Source: Vectrevirus PDP21P3. From it: 45,588 nucleotides of DNA. A program made the translations under genes and the position numbers. Shown here piece after piece: positions 3,901 through 45,588 of this stretch. The DNA lies in sequence record OZ035804.1; one strand, given 5' to 3'. Under the pieces are notes generated by a model, which saw only the letters and a list, made by a program, of their open reading frames with translations, was not told the origin of the DNA and searched no databases. Each line of letters opens with the position of its first letter. Positions within the stretch are counted from its first letter, which is position 1.

Positions 3901-3923
3901 ATTTACTGGACACTATAGAAGAG
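3901..3923 (+). promoter_or_regulatory. phage RNAP promoter (consensus copy)
   Basis: ATTTACTGGACACTATAGAAGAG, +1 G at 3918, directly upstream of tailspike 1. Confidence 0.7.
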
Positions 3924-4002
3924 ATAAGATAGTGCCGTTCTTTTGAGCGGCCTATTACTAGCCAATCTTCATGGTGAGGGTTGGGAAGTAATAGGAGATA
4001 AA

Positions 4003-5910
4003 ATGGCTAAATTAACCAAACCTAATACTGAAGGAATCTTGCATAAGGAAGACTCTTTGTATGAGTACCTTGATGCGAGAGAGAGTATAGTTTTAACATC
4101 AAAGCCGTTTGGTGCAGTAGGTGATGCTACTACTGATGATACGGAGGTTATAGCTGCTTCACTAAACTCTCAAAAAGCTGTCACAGTCTCAGACGGTGTA
4201 TTCTCTAGCTCTGGTATTAATAGTAATTACTGTAACTTAGACGGTAGAGGTAGCGGGGTGCTAAGTCACCGTTCCAGTACAGGTAACTACTTAGTATTTA
4301 ACAATCTACGTGCAGGTCGCTTAAGTAATATTACGGTAGAGAGTAATAAGGCGACTGATGATACTCAGGGACAGCAGGTATCTCTTGCTGGTGGCAGTGA
4401 TGTTACTGTAAGTGACGTTAACTTCTCAAACGTTAAAGGTACTGGTTTCAGTTTAATAGCATACCCTAATGGTGAGCAACCTAATGGGCTTATGATTAAA
4501 GGCATTCGAGGTAGCTACTCCGGCTATGCTACTAATAAGGCTGCTGGGTGCGTACTTGCTGACTCCTCAGTTAACTCTCTCATAGATAACGTAATTGCTA
4601 AGAGCTATCCTCAGTTCGGAGCTGTAGAGCTGAAAGGTACAGCCAGTTATAACATAGTAAGTAATGTTATAGGGGCAGATTGCCAGCATGTAACTTACAA
4701 TGGCACTGAAGGGCCAATAGCTCCTTCTAATAACCTTATCAAAGGGGTGATGGCTAATAACCCTAAGTATGCAGCGGTTGTTGCAGGAAAAGGAAGTACG
4801 AACTTAATCTCAGACGTGCTCGTAGATTACTCAACTTCTGATGCTAGGCAGGCTCATGGTGTTACCGTAGAAGGGTCTGATAACGTCATAAATAATGTGC
4901 TTATGTCAGGATGTGATGGTACTAACTCTTTAGGACAAGGGCAGACTGCTACAATTGCACGCTTTATAGGTACAGCTACTAACAACTATGCGTCTGTATT
5001 TCCTAGCTACAGTGCTACAGGTGTTATTACTTTCGAATCCGGCTCTACCCGTAACTTCGTAGAGGTAAAGCACCCTGGCAGGAGAAACGACCTTCTCAGT
5101 TCTGCTAGTACTATTGACGGTGCAGCTACTATTGACGGCACTAGTAATAGTAACGTAGTGCACGCACCCGCATTAGGACAGTACATAGGTAGTATGTCAG
5201 GTAGGTTCGAATGGAGGGTTAAGTCCATGTCACTTCCGTCAGGCGTTCTTACCTCGGCTGATAAGTACAGAATGCTTGGGGATGGTGCTGTGTCATTAGC
5301 TGTAGGTGGGGGCACTTCTTCTCAAGTTCGCCTATTTACTTCTGATGGTACCTCTCGTACAGTGTCCCTCACCAACGGTAACGTGCGTCTTTCTACCAGT
5401 AGCACAGGCTATTTGCAGTTAGGTGCTGATGCAATGACCCCAGATAGTACTGATACATACGCATTAGGTTCCGCCAGTAGAGCATGGTCTGGCGGTTTTA
5501 CTCAAGCAGCATTCACTGTTACCTCAGATGCTCGGTGTAAAACAGAACCTCTTACTATCTCAGATGCTTTACTGGATGCTTGGTCTGAAGTTGACTTTGT
5601 GCAGTTTCAGTATTTGGATCGGGTTGAGGAGAAGGGTGCAGACTCAGCGAGATGGCACTTTGGTGTCATCGCTCAGCGAGCTAAGGAGGCTTTCGAACGT
5701 CACGGCATAGATGCACACCGCTATGGCTTCTTGTGCTTCGACAGTTGGGATGATGTATACGAGGAAGATGCCAATGGCTCTCGTAAACTGATTACACCAG
5801 CAGGTTCCCGCTACGGTATTCGTTACGAGGAAGTATTGATATTAGAGGCTGCGTTGATGCGGCGGACTATTAAGCGTATGCAGGAAGCACTAGCTGCCCT
5901 TCCTAAGTAA
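4003..5910 (+). CDS. tailspike 1, pectate-lyase-like beta-helix with C-terminal intramolecular chaperone (S74-like) domain
   Basis: ATG 5 nt after AGGAGA (track start 3943 is a TTG); FGAVGDATTDDTEVI pectate-lyase-type motif; C-terminal ~130 aa with TSDARCK autoproteolysis-type motif as in endosialidase/K5-lyase-type tail proteins. Confidence 0.8.
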   Translation: MAKLTKPNTEGILHKEDSLYEYLDARESIVLTSKPFGAVGDATTDDTEVIAASLNSQKAVTVSDGVFSSSGINSNYCNLDGRGSGVLSHRSSTGNYLVFNNLRAGRLSNITVESNKATDDTQGQQVSLAGGSDVTVSDVNFSNVKGTGFSLIAYPNGEQPNGLMIKGIRGSYSGYATNKAAGCVLADSSVNSLIDNVIAKSYPQFGAVELKGTASYNIVSNVIGADCQHVTYNGTEGPIAPSNNLIKGVMANNPKYAAVVAGKGSTNLISDVLVDYSTSDARQAHGVTVEGSDNVINNVLMSGCDGTNSLGQGQTATIARFIGTATNNYASVFPSYSATGVITFESGSTRNFVEVKHPGRRNDLLSSASTIDGAATIDGTSNSNVVHAPALGQYIGSMSGRFEWRVKSMSLPSGVLTSADKYRMLGDGAVSLAVGGGTSSQVRLFTSDGTSRTVSLTNGNVRLSTSSTGYLQLGADAMTPDSTDTYALGSASRAWSGGFTQAAFTVTSDARCKTEPLTISDALLDAWSEVDFVQFQYLDRVEEKGADSARWHFGVIAQRAKEAFERHGIDAHRYGFLCFDSWDDVYEEDANGSRKLITPAGSRYGIRYEEVLILEAALMRRTIKRMQEALAALPK

Positions 5911-5995: not shown

Positions 5996-7792
5996 ATGCT
6001 TCAAAGATTAAGCACTGCCTTGGTGCGGTATAAAAGTAAAATGTCAGGTGCAATAGGTCGTATATTGCAAGAAAGACTAGAAGATACGTTAAATGCAAAA
6101 GACTTTGGTGCAAAATGTAATGGAGTGGATGATGATACAACCCCTCTCAACAATGCAGCAACAGCAGCACGCCTTAAAGGAGTCAAACTCGTAATAACAG
6201 GGTCTTGCCTAACAACTGACACAGTTAACTTTAGAGAGGTACTGCTAGAGGCATCAAGTGCTACGTTTATTATTAAACACGAGGGTGTTGGTGTTATCTT
6301 GGGTGGTAATGCAAGTGTGCACAATAACCCCAAGCAAGAGTTTGGTATGACAGAGAGACTTGTTGGGTCTGCATCTCTAGACGCTCCTGATGTACGTATA
6401 ATTGGTGCCAAGTGCCAACACATTAGCATAGAGAAGTCTGATTACCTTCAGCTATATGCAGATTCAGATGAATCAGTATATGAAAAGGACTACTCTATCG
6501 CGTATTCCACTTTTACCTTAAAGTATGTTAAAACAATCAACATACGCGGGATTAATCGTGGTTGGATTAATGAGAACCAGTTCTTCTTAAATAGAACACA
6601 TTTTGTGACAATACAAGATGGCAATTACTCTCATAACCACAATAAATTCTTTGGTGGCACTATGGAAGAGAAAGGTGCTATAGATATACAGAGAGGTCAT
6701 AATAATCACTTCTTTGGGCTTCGATTCGAAAGAGATGGCTCTAAGCCAGATAGGACACTAGACATCAAGTTTGGTTCTTATACATGGAATAATTCAATTG
6801 AAGCATCGTGGCTCAGCTCTGCTGCATATAGCAACGAACCCTATAACCCAAATAATCTTGTCACTGTTACAGATTTAGGTAGAGGTAATGCTGTACGCCA
6901 TATACAAGAAGATTTAACAGATGAGATCCCTTTGCTTTCACTAAGTGGAAAGGCAGACTACATCTCTAGTACCAACCTAGGTACTGTAAGCCAACCTGTT
7001 GTTATAACTAACTTCCCTAATATATATAATATTAGACACCTAGTATCAAGCAAGTTTTCTGTTGTAAGAAATTTCTACCCTATATGGGAGTCTGGTAATT
7101 TAGAGGTAAGGAATGGAGACTTATTCACATTCTGCTCTGATGTACCTATCTTCCGTATGCGTCTATTTATATTAGATGCGCAAGGTAATGTAATCACTGA
7201 GCAATTAGATGATGATGTATCATTCCCTGGTAGTTCTTGGAATGCACAATTAAGTATGTATACAAATACTACCAATATTGATGTTGCTAAAATACGTGTC
7301 ACTAATAGTTCTCGTATTAAATACATTCGTCTTGTCTTGATGTCTGGTGGTTCATCTCAAGATAGAATCTTTGAATATGCAAGAGTGACTGCAAGATACT
7401 ATAAGTATTCAAGCTCAACACCTCGTAAGAATATGGATGTTGCCTTAACCTCTTGCTCTGCTATGATGCCTTATAAGGGCGATGCAGAGATGCAATATAT
7501 GGGTTACGGTCTGCCTGTTGTTAAGATGGAAGATACGACTAAGAAGGTTAATATAACACGTAATAGGTATTCTGTTATTAATGTGTCTGGTTCTTCTATT
7601 AAGGTAAGGGTTTCAGGTAGTCTTATATCCGCAGATTCTAACGACTTACATCTTGTATATACAGAGGGTTCCGCTAATAAAATTATACCTATTCAGTCTT
7701 TATCGGATGATACTATTACTTTAACTTCTACTGCACCTACTACTATAGTAGCCAATAGCATGGTGGATGTAGTTTGTACAAAGCCGATGTGA
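5996..7792 (+). CDS. tailspike 2 (second receptor-binding/depolymerase-like protein)
   Basis: 598 aa, ATG 4 nt after AAAGGAGG; N-terminal DFGAKCNGVDDDT pectate-lyase-like motif; noticeably AT-rich; no phage promoter of its own. Confidence 0.7.
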   Translation: MLQRLSTALVRYKSKMSGAIGRILQERLEDTLNAKDFGAKCNGVDDDTTPLNNAATAARLKGVKLVITGSCLTTDTVNFREVLLEASSATFIIKHEGVGVILGGNASVHNNPKQEFGMTERLVGSASLDAPDVRIIGAKCQHISIEKSDYLQLYADSDESVYEKDYSIAYSTFTLKYVKTINIRGINRGWINENQFFLNRTHFVTIQDGNYSHNHNKFFGGTMEEKGAIDIQRGHNNHFFGLRFERDGSKPDRTLDIKFGSYTWNNSIEASWLSSAAYSNEPYNPNNLVTVTDLGRGNAVRHIQEDLTDEIPLLSLSGKADYISSTNLGTVSQPVVITNFPNIYNIRHLVSSKFSVVRNFYPIWESGNLEVRNGDLFTFCSDVPIFRMRLFILDAQGNVITEQLDDDVSFPGSSWNAQLSMYTNTTNIDVAKIRVTNSSRIKYIRLVLMSGGSSQDRIFEYARVTARYYKYSSSTPRKNMDVALTSCSAMMPYKGDAEMQYMGYGLPVVKMEDTTKKVNITRNRYSVINVSGSSIKVRVSGSLISADSNDLHLVYTEGSANKIIPIQSLSDDTITLTSTAPTTIVANSMVDVVCTKPM

Positions 7793-7798
7793 GGTAAT

Positions 7799-7948
7799 AT
7801 GCCTTTAATTAAATCAGTTAAGCAAAGTGCTGTACGCCAGAACACAGAAGAACTTATTCAATCAGGACGTGACCCTAAGCAAGCCTATGCGATTGCCAAG
7901 GATGTACAACGTCGTGCTATGAAGAAACCTTCTGCATCTTCTGCGTAA
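7799..7948 (+). CDS. hypothetical small basic protein
   Basis: 49 aa ORF (MPLIKSVKQSAVRQ…), GAGG 4 nt upstream; below the ORF-track length cutoff. Confidence 0.35.
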   Translation: MPLIKSVKQSAVRQNTEELIQSGRDPKQAYAIAKDVQRRAMKKPSASSA

Positions 7949-8018
7949 GCAGGTTAATATCTTAGTATAAACAAGGGCAGACTTAGGTTTGTCCTTAGTG
8001 TATTCCAAAGGAGGTAAC

Positions 8019-8147
8019 ATGCTGAAAGATGGTTGGGTTTCATATGACCCTACAGACCCTAAGAATTGGCTACAGGTTATCGCTATAGCTTGTGCAGGTA
8101 GCCTATTGGCTGCCCTGATGTATTCATTATGGATGTACACAAAGTAA
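8019..8147 (+). CDS. hypothetical small membrane protein
   Basis: 42 aa with C-terminal TM segment (VIAIACAGSLLAALMYSLWMY); strong RBS AAAGGAGG; last ORF before the non-coding terminal region. Confidence 0.4.
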   Translation: MLKDGWVSYDPTDPKNWLQVIAIACAGSLLAALMYSLWMYTK

Positions 8148-8379
8148 CCAAAGTCAAAATTTTGATGTAGGCGTGTGTCAGCTCTCTCGCCCTCGCCCTC
8201 GCCGGGTTGTCCCCATAGGGTGGCCTGAGGGAATCCGTCGAGGACGGGCAGGGCTGATGTACTCCTTGTACTAGCTTAGTAGTACACAAGGGCAGGCCGT
8301 ACTAGTTAGCTGGTACAGCCTAGTCTTTGCTCATGTACTAGCAAGGTGGAACGCTGGAGAACGCCTAGGACGGCCTAGG

Positions 8380-8890
8380 GATGGCTTAGTGGTGGACAAG
8401 GTGATTACCTTAGTGAAGCCTCTTAGTGCATTCCTGAGGCTATTCAGGACCATTCCTGAGCGTTTGACAGGGTGGGCGTGGGTGGGCTATCTGTTCGTTT
8501 GCTCGCTATCGCTCGCTGCACGCCTGTCGTGTACCTTAGGTTATTCCTTGATGGATAGCTTAGGTTAGCCTTAGTGGACTACCTTAGTTAAAGCCTTAGT
8601 GCTTAGCTTAGTATCAGCTTAGTAGTGTACCTTAGTAAGACTTAGTGTCTTCTCTTAGTGATTGCACATGCAAGCATGTAAGATGCCATTAGGTCGCGGT
8701 CGGTAGACCGCTAAAGAAAGAGAATAGTAATAAGATGCAGTAGGAGGAACACCAGAATCCTAGCCGACCTAGCCTATCCTGGCTCTGTATCTATTGCTTT
8801 TCCTTAGTCTCACATGTTAGACAACCTAGGTTTACCTTAGTAGTTGTGACATGTATCACATAAATAATCTATCTTAGTGAAATTTAGTGT
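8380..8890. repeat. array of short CTTAGT(G)/CCTTAGT direct repeats in non-coding region (likely genome-terminus region)
   Basis: about 20 irregularly spaced copies of cttagt read by eye, plus GC-rich mini-repeats just upstream (ctcgccctcgccctcgcc, gtgggcgtgggtgggc); T7-type genomes carry short repeat arrays next to their terminal repeats. Confidence 0.5.
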
Positions 8891-8918
8891 TGACACAGGC
8901 AAAAGCTAGTAGTACATT
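8890..8918 (+). promoter_or_regulatory. host sigma70-type early promoter candidate
   Basis: TTGACA - 17 nt - TACATT; lies at the start of the early region. Confidence 0.4.
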
Positions 8919-8968
8919 ACAGTCATCGGGAGGCAACATAGTCAAACGGTAGGCGACTTAAGTTGCCT

Positions 8969-8982
8969 TGCTCTTTAACAAT
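8969..8982 (+). promoter_or_regulatory. rrn boxA-like antitermination motif, copy 1
   Basis: TGCTCTTTAACAAT, identical over 14 nt to E. coli rrn boxA (TGCTCTTTAACAATTTA, from memory); preceded by an imperfect hairpin. Confidence 0.45.
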
Positions 8983-9023
8983 ATGGCTAGTGTCTTGATA
9001 GGCTAACTATCGAGGTAATTATC

Positions 9024-9155
9024 ATGCGTAACGTCACTATTTACATTGATGGTGTTTATTCTCACACTATGGCAGTTAATAAGGAAGTATCTAATGAGGC
9101 TGTTTTAGATTTACTGCTTAGTCAGGGACTACATGATGTAATTGTAGTGGGGTAA
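9024..9155 (+). CDS. hypothetical early peptide
   Basis: 43 aa ORF with GAGG RBS; not in ORF track (short). Confidence 0.3.
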   Translation: MRNVTIYIDGVYSHTMAVNKEVSNEAVLDLLLSQGLHDVIVVG

Positions 9156-9196
9156 GGTAAGTGCTGGCAATAGCCAGCCTATCAAGACACTGGCTG

Positions 9197-9209
9197 GCTC
9201 TTTAACAAT
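9197..9209 (+). promoter_or_regulatory. rrn boxA-like antitermination motif, copy 2
   Basis: GCTCTTTAACAAT preceded by hairpin GCTGGCaataGCCAGC. Confidence 0.45.
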
Positions 9210-9267
9210 CTGCTTAGTGTAACCTGTGTATGCCGTGGTTAATTACTTATTGAATGAGGAATTAACT

Positions 9268-9366
9268 ATGAATTACGAAAAACTGTATAAAGCCTATTAC
9301 TATAACGCATTAGTGAGAGGAGAAGAGCCTTTGTCTTATGCTGAGTTTGTGGAGGCTTTATCATGA
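9268..9366 (+). CDS. hypothetical early peptide
   Basis: 32 aa, GAGGA RBS 7 nt upstream, stop overlaps next ATG (ATGA). Confidence 0.25.
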   Translation: MNYEKLYKAYYYNALVRGEEPLSYAEFVEALS

Positions 9367-9548
9367 CACTGAATAGCCGTGAACTATCCGTTCTCTTCAC
9401 CTTGTTATGCTATATGATATATAGAAATGAGTCACTCAGTGATGATGAGTTGTCTTTGTATCACCGCTTTCTTAACGATGGTTGGGTGGATACATTAAAC
9501 CAGAAACGTGACTTGATGAAGGAGTTAATTAATGATTCAGTTAACTGA
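9363..9548 (+). CDS. hypothetical early protein
   Basis: 61 aa ORF translationally coupled to neighbours. Confidence 0.4.
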   Translation: MTLNSRELSVLFTLLCYMIYRNESLSDDELSLYHRFLNDGWVDTLNQKRDLMKELINDSVN

Positions 9549-9681
9549 AGACCAATTAAAGCAAATCTTAGTTGATGCGTGGTTTGCTGGTCATGAAACA
9601 TCTCAATACACACCTAACGCTTATGGCGATGCTAACAGATATGCACGTTCTGTATTAAAGGAGGTTAAAGAGGATGCATAA
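9532..9681 (+). CDS. hypothetical early peptide
   Basis: 49 aa, GGAG upstream, overlaps the stop of the previous ORF and the start of the next. Confidence 0.3.
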   Translation: MIQLTEDQLKQILVDAWFAGHETSQYTPNAYGDANRYARSVLKEVKEDA

Positions 9682-9898
9682 ACACGAAATCTTTCTTAAT
9701 TCAGGAAGTGAGGCACTCCGATTACTAGAAGATATGGAACAGGCTGGCGTAGCTGCTGACCTCACAACCTTTCTTCTGGACTATGACAGAGATTATTACC
9801 GCGTTACCTTAGTGACTGAGTATGATAACCCAGTCATCACTGAGTACTTAGGTAGTGAAGATTATGATTACGATGAAGTAATCACAACAAATCTCTAA
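9674..9898 (+). CDS. hypothetical acidic early protein
   Basis: 74 aa, RBS AAGGAGG; strongly acidic Tyr/Asp-rich C-terminus. Confidence 0.45.
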   Translation: MHKHEIFLNSGSEALRLLEDMEQAGVAADLTTFLLDYDRDYYRVTLVTEYDNPVITEYLGSEDYDYDEVITTNL

Positions 9899-9905
9899 AT
9901 AACTG

Positions 9906-9934
9906 TTGACAGCCACGGCATACAAGGTTACATT
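9906..9934 (+). promoter_or_regulatory. host sigma70-type early promoter candidate
   Basis: TTGACA - 17 nt - TACATT, same architecture as the 8890 site, upstream of ocr. Confidence 0.45.
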
Positions 9935-9967
9935 AAGCATCAAGACGGCGACGTCTTTAAACATCCC

Positions 9968-9982
9968 GCTCTTTAACAATTT
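9968..9982 (+). promoter_or_regulatory. rrn boxA-like antitermination motif, copy 3
   Basis: GCTCTTTAACAATTT (15/15 to rrn boxA core), ~35 nt after the 9906 promoter -10; preceded by hairpin GACGgcgaCGTC. Confidence 0.5.
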
Positions 9983-10076
9983 GGATAGGTAGCTTCTTAG
10001 TCGGGATAGGTTAAATCTAGGAGATTCTCTTGAGTCTCCTATAATGTAACCTAACTAACTAAATGAGGATTAAATC

Positions 10077-10409
10077 ATGAAACGTGATGCAAACGCTTAT
10101 TATGAACTTCTGGCTGCAACTGTTGAAGCATTCAACGAGCGCATTAAATACGATGGTATCCGTGAAGGTGATGATTATTCTGATGCACTTCATGAGGTTG
10201 TAGGCGGCAATGTGCCGCACTATTATCATGAAATCTTTACTGTGATGGCTGCAGATGGCATTGATATCGAATTCGACGATGCTGGCTTGATTCCTGACAC
10301 TAAGGACGTAACCAAGATTCTACAGGCTCGCATTTATGAGGCGCTTTATAATGATGTGCCAAATAATAGCAGTGTAGTTTGGTATGAAGACGAAGAAGAG
10401 GAAGAATAA
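10077..10409 (+). CDS. ocr: Ocr-like anti-restriction DNA mimic (T7 gp0.3 homolog)
   Basis: ERIKYDGIREGDDYSDALHEVVGGNVPHYYHEIFTVMAADGIDIEFDDAGLIPDTKDVTKILQARIYE aligns closely with T7 Ocr as remembered; acidic poly-Glu C-terminus. Confidence 0.85.
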   Translation: MKRDANAYYELLAATVEAFNERIKYDGIREGDDYSDALHEVVGGNVPHYYHEIFTVMAADGIDIEFDDAGLIPDTKDVTKILQARIYEALYNDVPNNSSVVWYEDEEEEE

Positions 10410-10411
10410 AG

Positions 10412-10522
10412 ATGGAAAGGCAATATAATTTCATCTTTTCAGATGGTGTAACCCTGAAGTGTTCCCTCCGATTCGCACAGATTCGCGAGGAAGTGCTAGG
10501 TACTACATATAAACTATTTATC
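10412..10522 (+). CDS. hypothetical early peptide
   Basis: 36 aa ORF after ocr; weak support. Confidence 0.25.
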
Positions 10523-14250: not shown

Positions 14251-14270
14251 AGTGTCTCACATGTGAGACT
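14251..14270 (+). repeat. conserved palindrome copy a (agtGTCTCACATGTGAGACtta)
   Basis: perfect palindrome between RNAP stop and next promoter. Confidence 0.8.
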
Positions 14271-14271
14271 T

Positions 14272-14294
14272 ATTTACCGGACACTATAGGATAG
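14272..14294 (+). promoter_or_regulatory. phage RNAP promoter
   Basis: ATTTACCGGACACTATAGGATAG; +1 G at 14289 followed by 5' hairpin CCGTCggaGACGG. Confidence 0.7.
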
Positions 14295-14435
14295 CCGTCG
14301 GAGACGGGAAAGAAAGGGAAGATAAAGGATATAAAAGGAAGTAATAGGTATTAAAGGTTATATAGGTTATCTAGGAATACCTATTACCTTCTTCCTTCCT
14401 CTTATTACTACTTAGAGGAAGGGCAGATCTAGGTT

Positions 14436-14451
14436 GTCTCACATGTGAGAC
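14436..14451 (+). repeat. conserved palindrome copy b
   Basis: GTCTCACATGTGAGAC. Confidence 0.8.
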
Positions 14452-14456
14452 TTCGT

Positions 14457-17515: not shown

Positions 17516-17539
17516 GCTTGTCTCACATGTGAGACAGGC
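17516..17539 (+). repeat. conserved palindrome copy c (gcTTGTCTCACATGTGAGACAggc)
   Basis: 18-bp perfect core plus pairing flanks. Confidence 0.8.
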
Positions 17540-45439: not shown

Positions 45440-45588
45440 ATGATTAACTCCGAACTGGTAGATAGTGGTGTGAAGCTTGCGCCACCTGCACTCGTATCAG
45501 GTGGGTACTTCCTCGGTATCAGTTGGGATAATTGGGTGTTAATAGCAACATTCATTTATACCGTGTTGCAAATTGGGGACTGGTTTTA
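45440..45588 (+). CDS. class II holin (T7 gp17.5-like), 5' partial at window end
   Basis: RBS AAGGAGG; LGISWDNWVLIATFIYTVLQIGDWF resembles T7 holin (…GLSLNEWFYVAAIAYTVVQIGAKV…, from memory); reading frame continues at positions 1..46 if the record is circular. Confidence 0.6.
   Translation, partial: MINSELVDSGVKLAPPALVSGGYFLGISWDNWVLIATFIYTVLQIGDWF

Follow-up and report, generated by a model that had tools for sequence, protein, structure and literature searches.

The stretch of DNA analyzed here, the 45,588-nt window deposited as sequence record OZ035804.1 from Vectrevirus PDP21P3, very probably carries the concatemer junction of a T7-supergroup phage between its late and early genes, where the circular assembly shows the direct terminal repeat only once and the ends can be inferred by homology. 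Judged from the sequence of relatives, the virion DNA should start near position 8186 (TCTC/CTCGCC x3) and end at 8489 (...GGGCTA), for a packaged length of ~45,892 bp. The architecture is that of the known T7-type terminal-repeat/concatemer junction, with ends documented for K1-5 and SP6, encountered here in an unannotated and permuted record. The K1-5 and SP6 ends were reportedly deposited by Scholl et al. in 2004. According to the record taxonomy lines, Vectrevirus represents the K1-5 group of SP6-like podoviruses (Autographiviridae, Molineuxvirinae), and positions 7950-9050 of the window match OZ035769.1 (Vectrevirus PDP21P3, 45,588 bp, unannotated) at 100% identity and with unchanged coordinates.

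Genomic context of the junction

The window opens with the genes for the small terminase TerS (30-323, matching phrog_891) and the large terminase TerL (326-2227, matching phrog_17672), continues through two tail-spike or tail-fiber genes (3943-5910 and 5996-7792), and reaches two tiny ORFs that end at 8147. The last ORF before the right genome end (8019-8147, plus strand, 42 aa) returned no PHROG match and aligns base for base with K1-5 gene 49. A non-coding stretch follows, and then the small early genes, with an ocr-like gene at 10077-10409. The resulting order, terS, terL, tail spikes, junction, and early genes with ocr, is the SP6/K1-5 order, and the junction sits between the last late gene (8147) and the first early host-type promoter (8890) of a genome transcribed in one direction.

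The absence of any plausible ORF from this stretch, as noted in the first-pass annotation, is borne out by a longest ATG-started frame of 40 aa on either strand of 8148-8889. A 59-aa GTG ORF at 8389-8568 crosses a segment in which the indels among relatives are not multiples of 3. A search of 7500-10500 against Rfam, run with a permissive threshold, yielded nothing beyond a snoRNA-like match attributable to chance (E = 0.43). The phage-type promoter ATTTACYGGACACTATAGAAGA occurs in 13 copies in the window, the nearest to the junction at 3901 and 10516, and none of the 13 falls in 8150-8900 as an equivalent of phiOL or phiOR. As no sense-strand intrinsic terminator was found from the phage promoter at 3901, the last one upstream, to the junction, late transcripts plausibly reach it.

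The start of the record is not a physical end: a 64-aa ORF spans the point at which the record was opened, taking in its last 148 bases and its first ones, and a comparison of the two record ends found no sequence in common. Physical ends close to the window start, the observation that the first-pass annotation named as fatal to its reading, are thus not what the record displays. A permuted record devoid of terminal repeats is also what would be seen if the true ends lay elsewhere or packaging proceeded by headful, leaving the region as an intergenic regulatory zone. Such an interpretation is scarcely credible given that the record ends interrupt an ORF, that every relative with resolved ends places them here, and that the small terminase falls in a PHROG small-terminase family within an SP6/K1-5 gene order.

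Boundaries and length of the predicted terminal repeat

Several related records start exactly inside the flagged region and match it at two places. In seven relatives with the repeat at both record ends, direct comparison of those ends yielded exact terminal repeats of 234 bp in K1-5, 174 bp in SP6, 304 bp in VEc3, 283 bp in Ro_P3a, 285 bp in R4596, 286 bp in mutPK1A2, and 267 bp in Mt1B1_P10; for R4596 the accompanying paper gives 428 bp, and the exact value of 285 bp from the deposited record was used. Repeat regions are annotated in the records of Ro_P3a, mutPK1A2, Mt1B1_P10, T3, Era103, and gh-1. All seven repeats start with (TC)(TC)TCGCC... and end with ...GGGCTA, and the left copy then continues into TCTGTTC.

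Mapped onto the window, the inner (right) edge of the repeat falls at 8489|8490 in seven of seven relatives, and their left ends fall at 8183-8187, four of the seven at 8186; the left boundary varies by up to 4 nt among relatives, and several of the records owe their ends to assembly, not to end sequencing. We therefore place the predicted direct terminal repeat, a single collapsed copy of 304 bp on the plus strand, at 8186-8489, with a left boundary uncertain within 8183-8187. The physical ends of all seven relatives thus lie within the interval that had been flagged from sequence features as the probable genome termini. The repeat sequence is present once in the record, and its GC content is 56.6%, compared to 45.1% for the genome. 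A passage in PMC10438801 describes a single copy as the typical outcome of short-read assembly for such repeats.

Conserved edges and a variable center

Two GC-rich triplicated motifs that had been listed in the region are indeed present, CTCGCC x3 in tandem at 8186-8203 and GTGGG x3 at 8472-8486, and on comparison with the relatives they are the two predicted boundaries of the terminal repeat and not decoration. The CTCGCC triplet (plus strand) supplies the predicted first bases of the virion DNA, and the left-end signature is found there in the form of TCTCTCGCC at 8183-8191 together with CCCCATAGGG at 8211-8220 (plus strand), ~26 nt from the left end. The T7 left end likewise starts with TCTC and carries a CCCC(C)ATAGGG(GG) element ~26 nt in, CCCCCATAGGGGG at position 26; Era103 has CCCATAGGG at 29, and T3, K1F, and gh-1 carry variants of the CCCCATAGGG-type element. 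With K1-5 and SP6 the likeness extends to both edges, TC(TC)TCGCC... on the left and ...GGGCTA|TCTGTTC on the right, and to the 8-copy CTTAGT array, the conserved block, and the flanking genes. On the right, a TTGACA hexamer (8464-8469), found in every phage examined, precedes the G-rich GTGGG triplet that closes the repeat (8464-8486, plus strand). In size the repeats differ, at 304 bp in PDP21P3 and 160 bp in T7.

The repeat is adjoined on its left by a conserved right-end unique segment at 8136-8185 (plus strand), a candidate recognition element for right-end processing, which contains the perfect 12-bp palindrome TCAAAATTTTGA at 8154-8165, kept as far as the Klebsiella Ulipvirus phages. 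Against a genome-wide baseline of 77% identity to SP6 across the alignable 68% of the window, this segment is 92% identical to SP6 and 100% to K1-5, the first 45 bp of the repeat 89% and 100%, and the 45 bp past the junction (8490-8534) 84% and 80%, whereas the repeat center (8231-8440) reaches 57% against K1-5 and does not align with SP6 at all (0%). Large indels account for ~70 extra bases in the center relative to K1-5 and ~130 relative to SP6; the ~70-bp segment missing from K1-5 holds three GTACTAG copies (8268, 8299, and 8335). With edges and flanks conserved and the center variable, the signals would appear to reside at the edges, with the repeat's middle acting as a spacer.

Folding adds little to this picture. 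The imperfect hairpin reported in the first-pass annotation does exist at 8264-8291 (-5 kcal/mol as DNA), within the part of the center that the alignment marks as variable (8264-8341, plus strand), but it is not above chance (z = -0.9, equaled by 38 of 200 shuffles). A larger inverted repeat at 8258-8360 likewise folds no better than shuffles (z -1.5), and neither the right-end unique segment nor a degenerate 18-bp palindrome farther downstream folds better than its shuffles.

A predicted pause signal at the inner edge

The inner edge of the repeat coincides with ATCTGTT (8489-8495, plus strand), the initial A of which closes the repeat. Preceded by T, it forms TATCTGTT at 8488-8495, which fits (A/C/T)ATCTGTT and is a predicted class II pause/termination signal. 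In published work, the class II signal of T7 RNA polymerase is ATCTGTT, strictly conserved and following A, C, or T, and its one natural copy is the T7 concatemer junction (10.1101/2021.01.11.426313, 10.64898/2026.02.12.705533). A passage in PMC3276506, citing Zhang and Studier 2004, states that the T7 polymerase-lysozyme complex pauses at the junction and contacts gp18/gp19, whereupon maturation starts.

The distribution of the motif speaks for function. The window holds a single sense-strand ATCTGTT and five copies on the other strand, and the complete genomes of K1-5, SP6, and T7 hold one sense-strand copy each, at 234, 174, and 161, which is in every case the inner edge of the left repeat. 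Under a first-order Markov model, 2.7-3.6 sense-strand copies are expected per genome and 12.95 in total over the window, K1-5, SP6, and T7; antisense copies in the same four genomes number 12 versus 15.7 expected and exhibit no depletion. The occurrence of zero sense copies away from the junction versus ~13 expected indicates avoidance elsewhere and hence function, with the nominal Poisson value of ~2e-6 overstating the evidence, as the four genomes are not independent. The inner edge ...CT(A)|(A)TCTGTT and the uniqueness of the sense-strand ATCTGTT are thus shared with T7. T3 has the same repeat|ATCTGTT arrangement, and gh-1 and Era103 carry the variants ATCTGTC/ATCTGTA and ATCTATC.

The CTTAGT array

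Beyond the junction lies an array of short repeats, of which about 20 copies of CTTAGT(G) had been reported. The count is accurate: 8150-8900 contains 15 exact copies, all on the plus strand, and seven one-base variants (CTTAGG, CCTAGG, CCTAGT, and TTTAGT), or 22 altogether, with no CTTAGT on the minus strand of the interval. An unbiased k-mer test that took the rest of the genome as background ranks CTTAGT first among 6-mers for enrichment (15 versus 0.31 expected, Poisson p ~1e-20); the word is often extended as (A)CCTTAGT(G). The array proper (8535-8659, plus strand) comprises two CTTAGG (8535 and 8559) and eight CTTAGT (8570-8659) in one orientation, the latter with start-to-start spacings of 13, 12, 12, 11, 13, 10, and 13. 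Further copies lie inside the repeat at 8364-8427 (plus strand; CCTAGG at 8364 and 8374, CTTAGT at 8385, 8409, and 8422), where the alignment finds them kept in K1-5, VEc3, Ro_P3a, and R4596, and one more CTTAGT (8275) lies in the repeat center. A trio upstream (7961-7999, plus strand; CTTAGT 7961, CTTAGG 7982, CTTAGT 7994) is contained within a 10-12-bp hairpin (dG -4.9 kcal/mol, z = -2.8) and is also found in K1-5, SP6, Ro_P3a, and R4596; the VEc3 segment is diverged and aligns poorly.

In an alignment of ten phages that span four genera, invariant columns make up 37 of 60 in the hexamers and 8 of 65 in the spacers (Fisher p = 8e-9; Mann-Whitney p = 9e-12), a difference in conservation that marks each hexamer as a selected unit. 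The K1-5 array has identical copy number and spacings, and SP6 and two Klebsiella phages (Ulipvirus) retain seven exact copies plus one decayed. These observations bear directly on the notion that the repeats are functionless, neutral products of replication slippage. The repeat center does tolerate insertions and local duplications, such as the three GTACTAG copies and the ~70-bp indel, yet hexamers maintained in four genera while their spacers diverge, the unchanged K1-5 array, and a complete orientation bias had already rendered slippage disfavored, and we regard it as most improbable.

The plan of the T7 ends is closely analogous. There CCTAAAG, in one orientation, is found three times in the repeat and at least eight times just beyond it at 12-13-bp spacing (eight exact copies over 175-332, for the most part 13 bp apart), and a pair of copies lies upstream of the right-hand repeat. 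The PDP21P3 array at 8535-8659 is the counterpart of the T7 SRL, and the trio at 7961-7999 that of the SRR-like pair. The word itself differs, CTTAGT in PDP21P3 and CCTAAAG in T7, with CTTAAAG/CCTAAAG in T3 and CTTATGG in Era103; the arrays are thus analogous with a lineage-specific word, and sequence homology of the word (CCT..AG) is only suggestive. Dunn and Studier are said to have named the T7 arrays SRL and SRR in 1983 and to have left their function open. That such arrays take part in concatemer processing and packaging, as the first-pass annotation had it, is an expectation from their position and not an established fact. Among the papers searched, none was found to test the role of SRL/SRR or CCTAAAG in T7.

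The strict orientation of the copies favors a directional protein-binding role, and we tentatively propose, at somewhat less than even likelihood, that the oriented array serves maturation or packaging in this capacity, for instance by binding terminase near the left end. A functional parallel is afforded by phage lambda, in which cosB and cosQ are the terminase-binding and packaging-termination sites: repeated or oriented cis-sites flank the cut, and terminase reads them in one direction. The likeness is confined to function, as there is no sequence or structural kinship, lambda has cohesive ends rather than terminal repeats, and terminase binding to CTTAGT is hypothetical. Two more specific ideas were abandoned. 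Wrapping of the eight hexamers around a small-terminase ring was set aside, as a period of 12 bp does not keep step with the helical repeat, and the use of CTTAGT as primase recognition sites was dropped, as the GCA that the SP6 primase recognizes is absent from the repeat word.

Tandem, oriented short repeats of regular period also bring to mind a left-end replication origin of the iteron type, and T7 has secondary origins near its ends. An origin of this kind is nonetheless very unlikely here. The conserved unit is 6 bp compared with ~17-22 bp for iterons; T7-type origins are promoter-driven, and 8150-8900 is devoid of phage promoters; the GC content of 8490-8900 is 42% versus 45% for the genome, without an AT-rich unwinding element; and no initiator ORF is adjacent.

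The early promoter region

The first early sigma-70-type promoter consists of TTGACA at 8890-8895, a 17-nt spacer, and TACATT at 8913-8918 (plus strand). Upstream of it, TGTGA-N6-TCACA (8845-8860), centered ~71-72 bp before the predicted transcription start, occurs in its only copy in the window (0.10 expected) and matches the half-sites of the CRP-site consensus; it is common to VEc3 and SP6 and absent from K1-5, R4596, and Ro_P3a. The promoter cassette is 91% identical to SP6 and 8% to K1-5. Compared to T7, which has A1-A3, only one clear host-type promoter passed our scan in PDP21P3, and the phage-polymerase promoter that would be equivalent to phiOL is missing between the array and the early promoter.

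CTTAGT (8873) and TTTAGTG (8883) adjoin the -35 hexamer of the early promoter, and other copies trail boxA-like sequences, so that CTTAGT(G) may serve transcription rather than packaging. Formulated as an alternative, the motif would provide binding sites for a host or phage factor that tunes the first host-type promoter, or leader-RNA motifs. A leader-RNA variant would draw on a host promoter overlapping the pause site (TTGACA at 8464, 18 nt, TATCTG). This role in early transcription is the main rival to a packaging role of the array, and we hold it to be improbable. In its favor, (C/T)TTAGTG abuts the -35 TTGACA in six of six aligned phages, even where the promoter cassette has been exchanged; copies occur after each boxA-like sequence, within a run of 22 consecutive sense-strand copies from 7961 to 9996; the TTGACA at 8464-8469 is universal among the phages compared; and a 2026 preprint calls the T7 junction signal a context-dependent sigma-70 promoter (10.64898/2026.02.12.705533). 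Conversely, 230-320 bp separate the dense array from the promoter downstream, TATCTG makes a poor -10 candidate and failed the promoter scan, stable transcripts from the equivalent T7 region are not abundant (10.64898/2026.02.12.705533), and the T7 array occupies the matching position with respect to the repeat and not to a promoter.

A conserved non-coding block

The array is followed, ahead of the early promoter, by a non-coding block (8660-8830, plus strand) that is strongly conserved, with 88% identity to SP6, at the 96th percentile of all 170-nt windows. About 100 records match it, and none of 40 among the matches listed annotates it; neither an ORF nor an Rfam match was found within it, nor any consensus for a promoter or terminator. 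The block features an invariant hairpin, GCGGTC-GGTA-GACCGC (8696-8711, z = -2.9), flanked by the direct repeat TAAGATGC at 8679 and 8731, 52 bp apart. In 7 of 11 phages, another palindrome takes the place of the small one at 8666-8679; consensus folding of the block places three compensatory pairs in one 6-bp stem, and with only two haplotypes represented, these pairs constitute weak evidence for structure. The degenerate copy of an 18-bp palindrome that had been reported lies at 8806-8823 and matches 16 of 18 positions of TGTCTCACATGTGAGACA, which belongs to a family of eight copies, perfect at 17519 and 41112. No counterpart of the block was noticed in the T7 left end.

It is conceivable, if rather unlikely, that the CTTAGT array and the block at 8660-8830 together form one uncharacterized cis-module of SP6-like phages, either a directional stop or hand-over signal for the packaging motor near the left end or an early non-coding RNA. 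The host-type promoter overlapping the junction pause site could be the source of such an RNA. Were this cis-module real, a function would be assigned to the short-repeat arrays, and we know of none among the T7-type arrays that has been assigned one since the T7 sequence of 1983.

A model for end formation

By analogy to T7, replication of PDP21P3 would generate head-to-tail chains with one repeat per junction, and late transcripts of the phage polymerase would run rightward over the repeat and pause at ATCTGTT on its inner edge. The pause would occur ~6-8 nt past the signal, and so near 8501-8503, where the paused polymerase may help terminase (TerS 30-323, TerL 326-2227) to engage the DNA. 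Cuts at 8489|8490 and near 8186, combined with synthesis of a second repeat, would then leave both daughter genomes complete. The putative cis-signals comprise the segment 8136-8185, which contains TCAAAATTTTGA, the opening ~45 bp of the repeat, where CCCCATAGGG lies, and its closing ~25 bp, which hold TTGACA and the G-run; the center of the repeat would be a free spacer. T7 DNA is packaged right end first, and with the same polarity here the motor would meet the array, from 8659 towards 8535, shortly before the repeat and at the end of each run. One repeat per concatemer junction, with the second copy synthesized, is also the scheme outlined in the portion of PMC10438801 that deals with this step.

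Implications

As deposited, the public record opens at an arbitrary position, is unannotated, and falls short by one ~304-bp copy of the repeat. Ends at ~8186/8489 permit its re-orientation and a corrected genome length of ~45.9 kb, and knowledge of the ends allows the spurious "hypothetical proteins" called in this region of related records to be removed. The practical value of the analysis is therefore record correction, and its biological value is modest. Constraint falls on the two repeat edges, on the junction pause signal that the sense strand avoids elsewhere, and on each hexamer of the array; edges, pause signal, array, and conserved block are thereby defined targets for the study of how T7-type phages form exact terminal repeats.

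Pause signal at the genome junction

The predicted terminal repeat (8186-8489) carries at its inner edge the class II pause signal ATCTGTT (8489-8495). In the four whole genomes searched (the window, K1-5, SP6 and T7), the sense strand holds no ATCTGTT other than the one at the junction, with approximately three occurrences expected in each; the antisense strands of these genomes show no such depletion. This strand-specific absence indicates that the class II signal is avoided genome-wide. The segment at 8464-8495 further contains a perfect TTGACA, kept in all phages examined, followed 18 nt downstream by a TATCTG that overlaps the pause signal. As the corresponding T7 junction signal has been reported in a 2026 preprint to act as a promoter for the host polymerase (10.64898/2026.02.12.705533), a weak rightward promoter at 8464-8495 is conceivable by analogy.

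Record boundaries and annotation of the terminal region

Among the matches listed, the junction lies at about 7.8-9.4 kb in related OZ0357xx/OZ0358xx records, which therefore appear to have been rotated to one common arbitrary start. A 64-aa ORF (45441-45588 joined to 1-47) bridges the two ends of the record and lies directly upstream of the gene for the small terminase; the middle part of its product is hydrophobic, and the protein, as judged by eye, may be holin-like. In several related records, short "hypothetical proteins" are annotated on either strand within the terminal repeat and repeat array, for example in SE29 (40-1077) and Mt1B1_P10 (64-474). Considering the indels and the non-coding pattern of conservation there, these are probably gene-caller artefacts. 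For phage R4596, the exact repeat in the deposited record (MK373771) measures 285 bp, as opposed to the 428-bp terminal repeat given in its publication.

Conserved non-coding and repeated elements

The non-coding block at 8660-8830 is more strongly conserved against SP6 than 96% of the genome, and is annotated in none of the 40 related records listed. Within it lies an invariant GC hairpin (8696-8711) with TAAGATGC direct repeats on both sides. The 18-bp palindrome family (TGTCTCACATGTGAGACA) has eight members in the genome, including sites at 14253-14271, 14435-14453, 15453, 17519, 18744, 23590 and 41112. Three members are situated directly upstream of phage-polymerase promoters (at 14272, 14457 and 23622), and three others reside inside longer hairpin-like contexts.

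Candidate control elements of early transcription

The early region contains three exact sense-strand copies of GCTCTTTAACAA (8969-8981, 9197-9208 and 9968-9979), versus a chance expectation of 0.3 that already tolerates one mismatch. A word resembling the enriched repeat CTTAGT lies no more than about 30 nt downstream of each, and the two copies examined for upstream structure, 8969-8981 and 9197-9208, are both preceded by a stem-loop. Because GCTCTTTAACAA matches boxA (TGCTCTTTAACAA), the antitermination sequence of the rrn operons of E. coli, the motif suggests rrn-type antitermination of early transcripts.

A candidate CRP site, TGTGACATGTATCACA (8845-8860), agrees with the half-sites of the CRP consensus, TGTGA-N6-TCACA, and is the sole such match in the genome (0.10 expected). 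Its center falls ~71-72 bp upstream of where transcription from the first early sigma-70-type promoter, at 8890, is predicted to begin, a spacing that corresponds to a class I activation position. The site is common to the window, VEc3 and SP6, and missing in K1-5, R4596 and Ro_P3a. The early-promoter cassette as a whole (8831-8925) shares 91% identity with that of SP6, a Zindervirus, and is only 8% alignable with that of K1-5, a Vectrevirus; K1-5, R4596 and Ro_P3a have another cassette in common, unlike that of the window. From these sequence comparisons, the promoter module looks like the product of mosaic exchange across genera.
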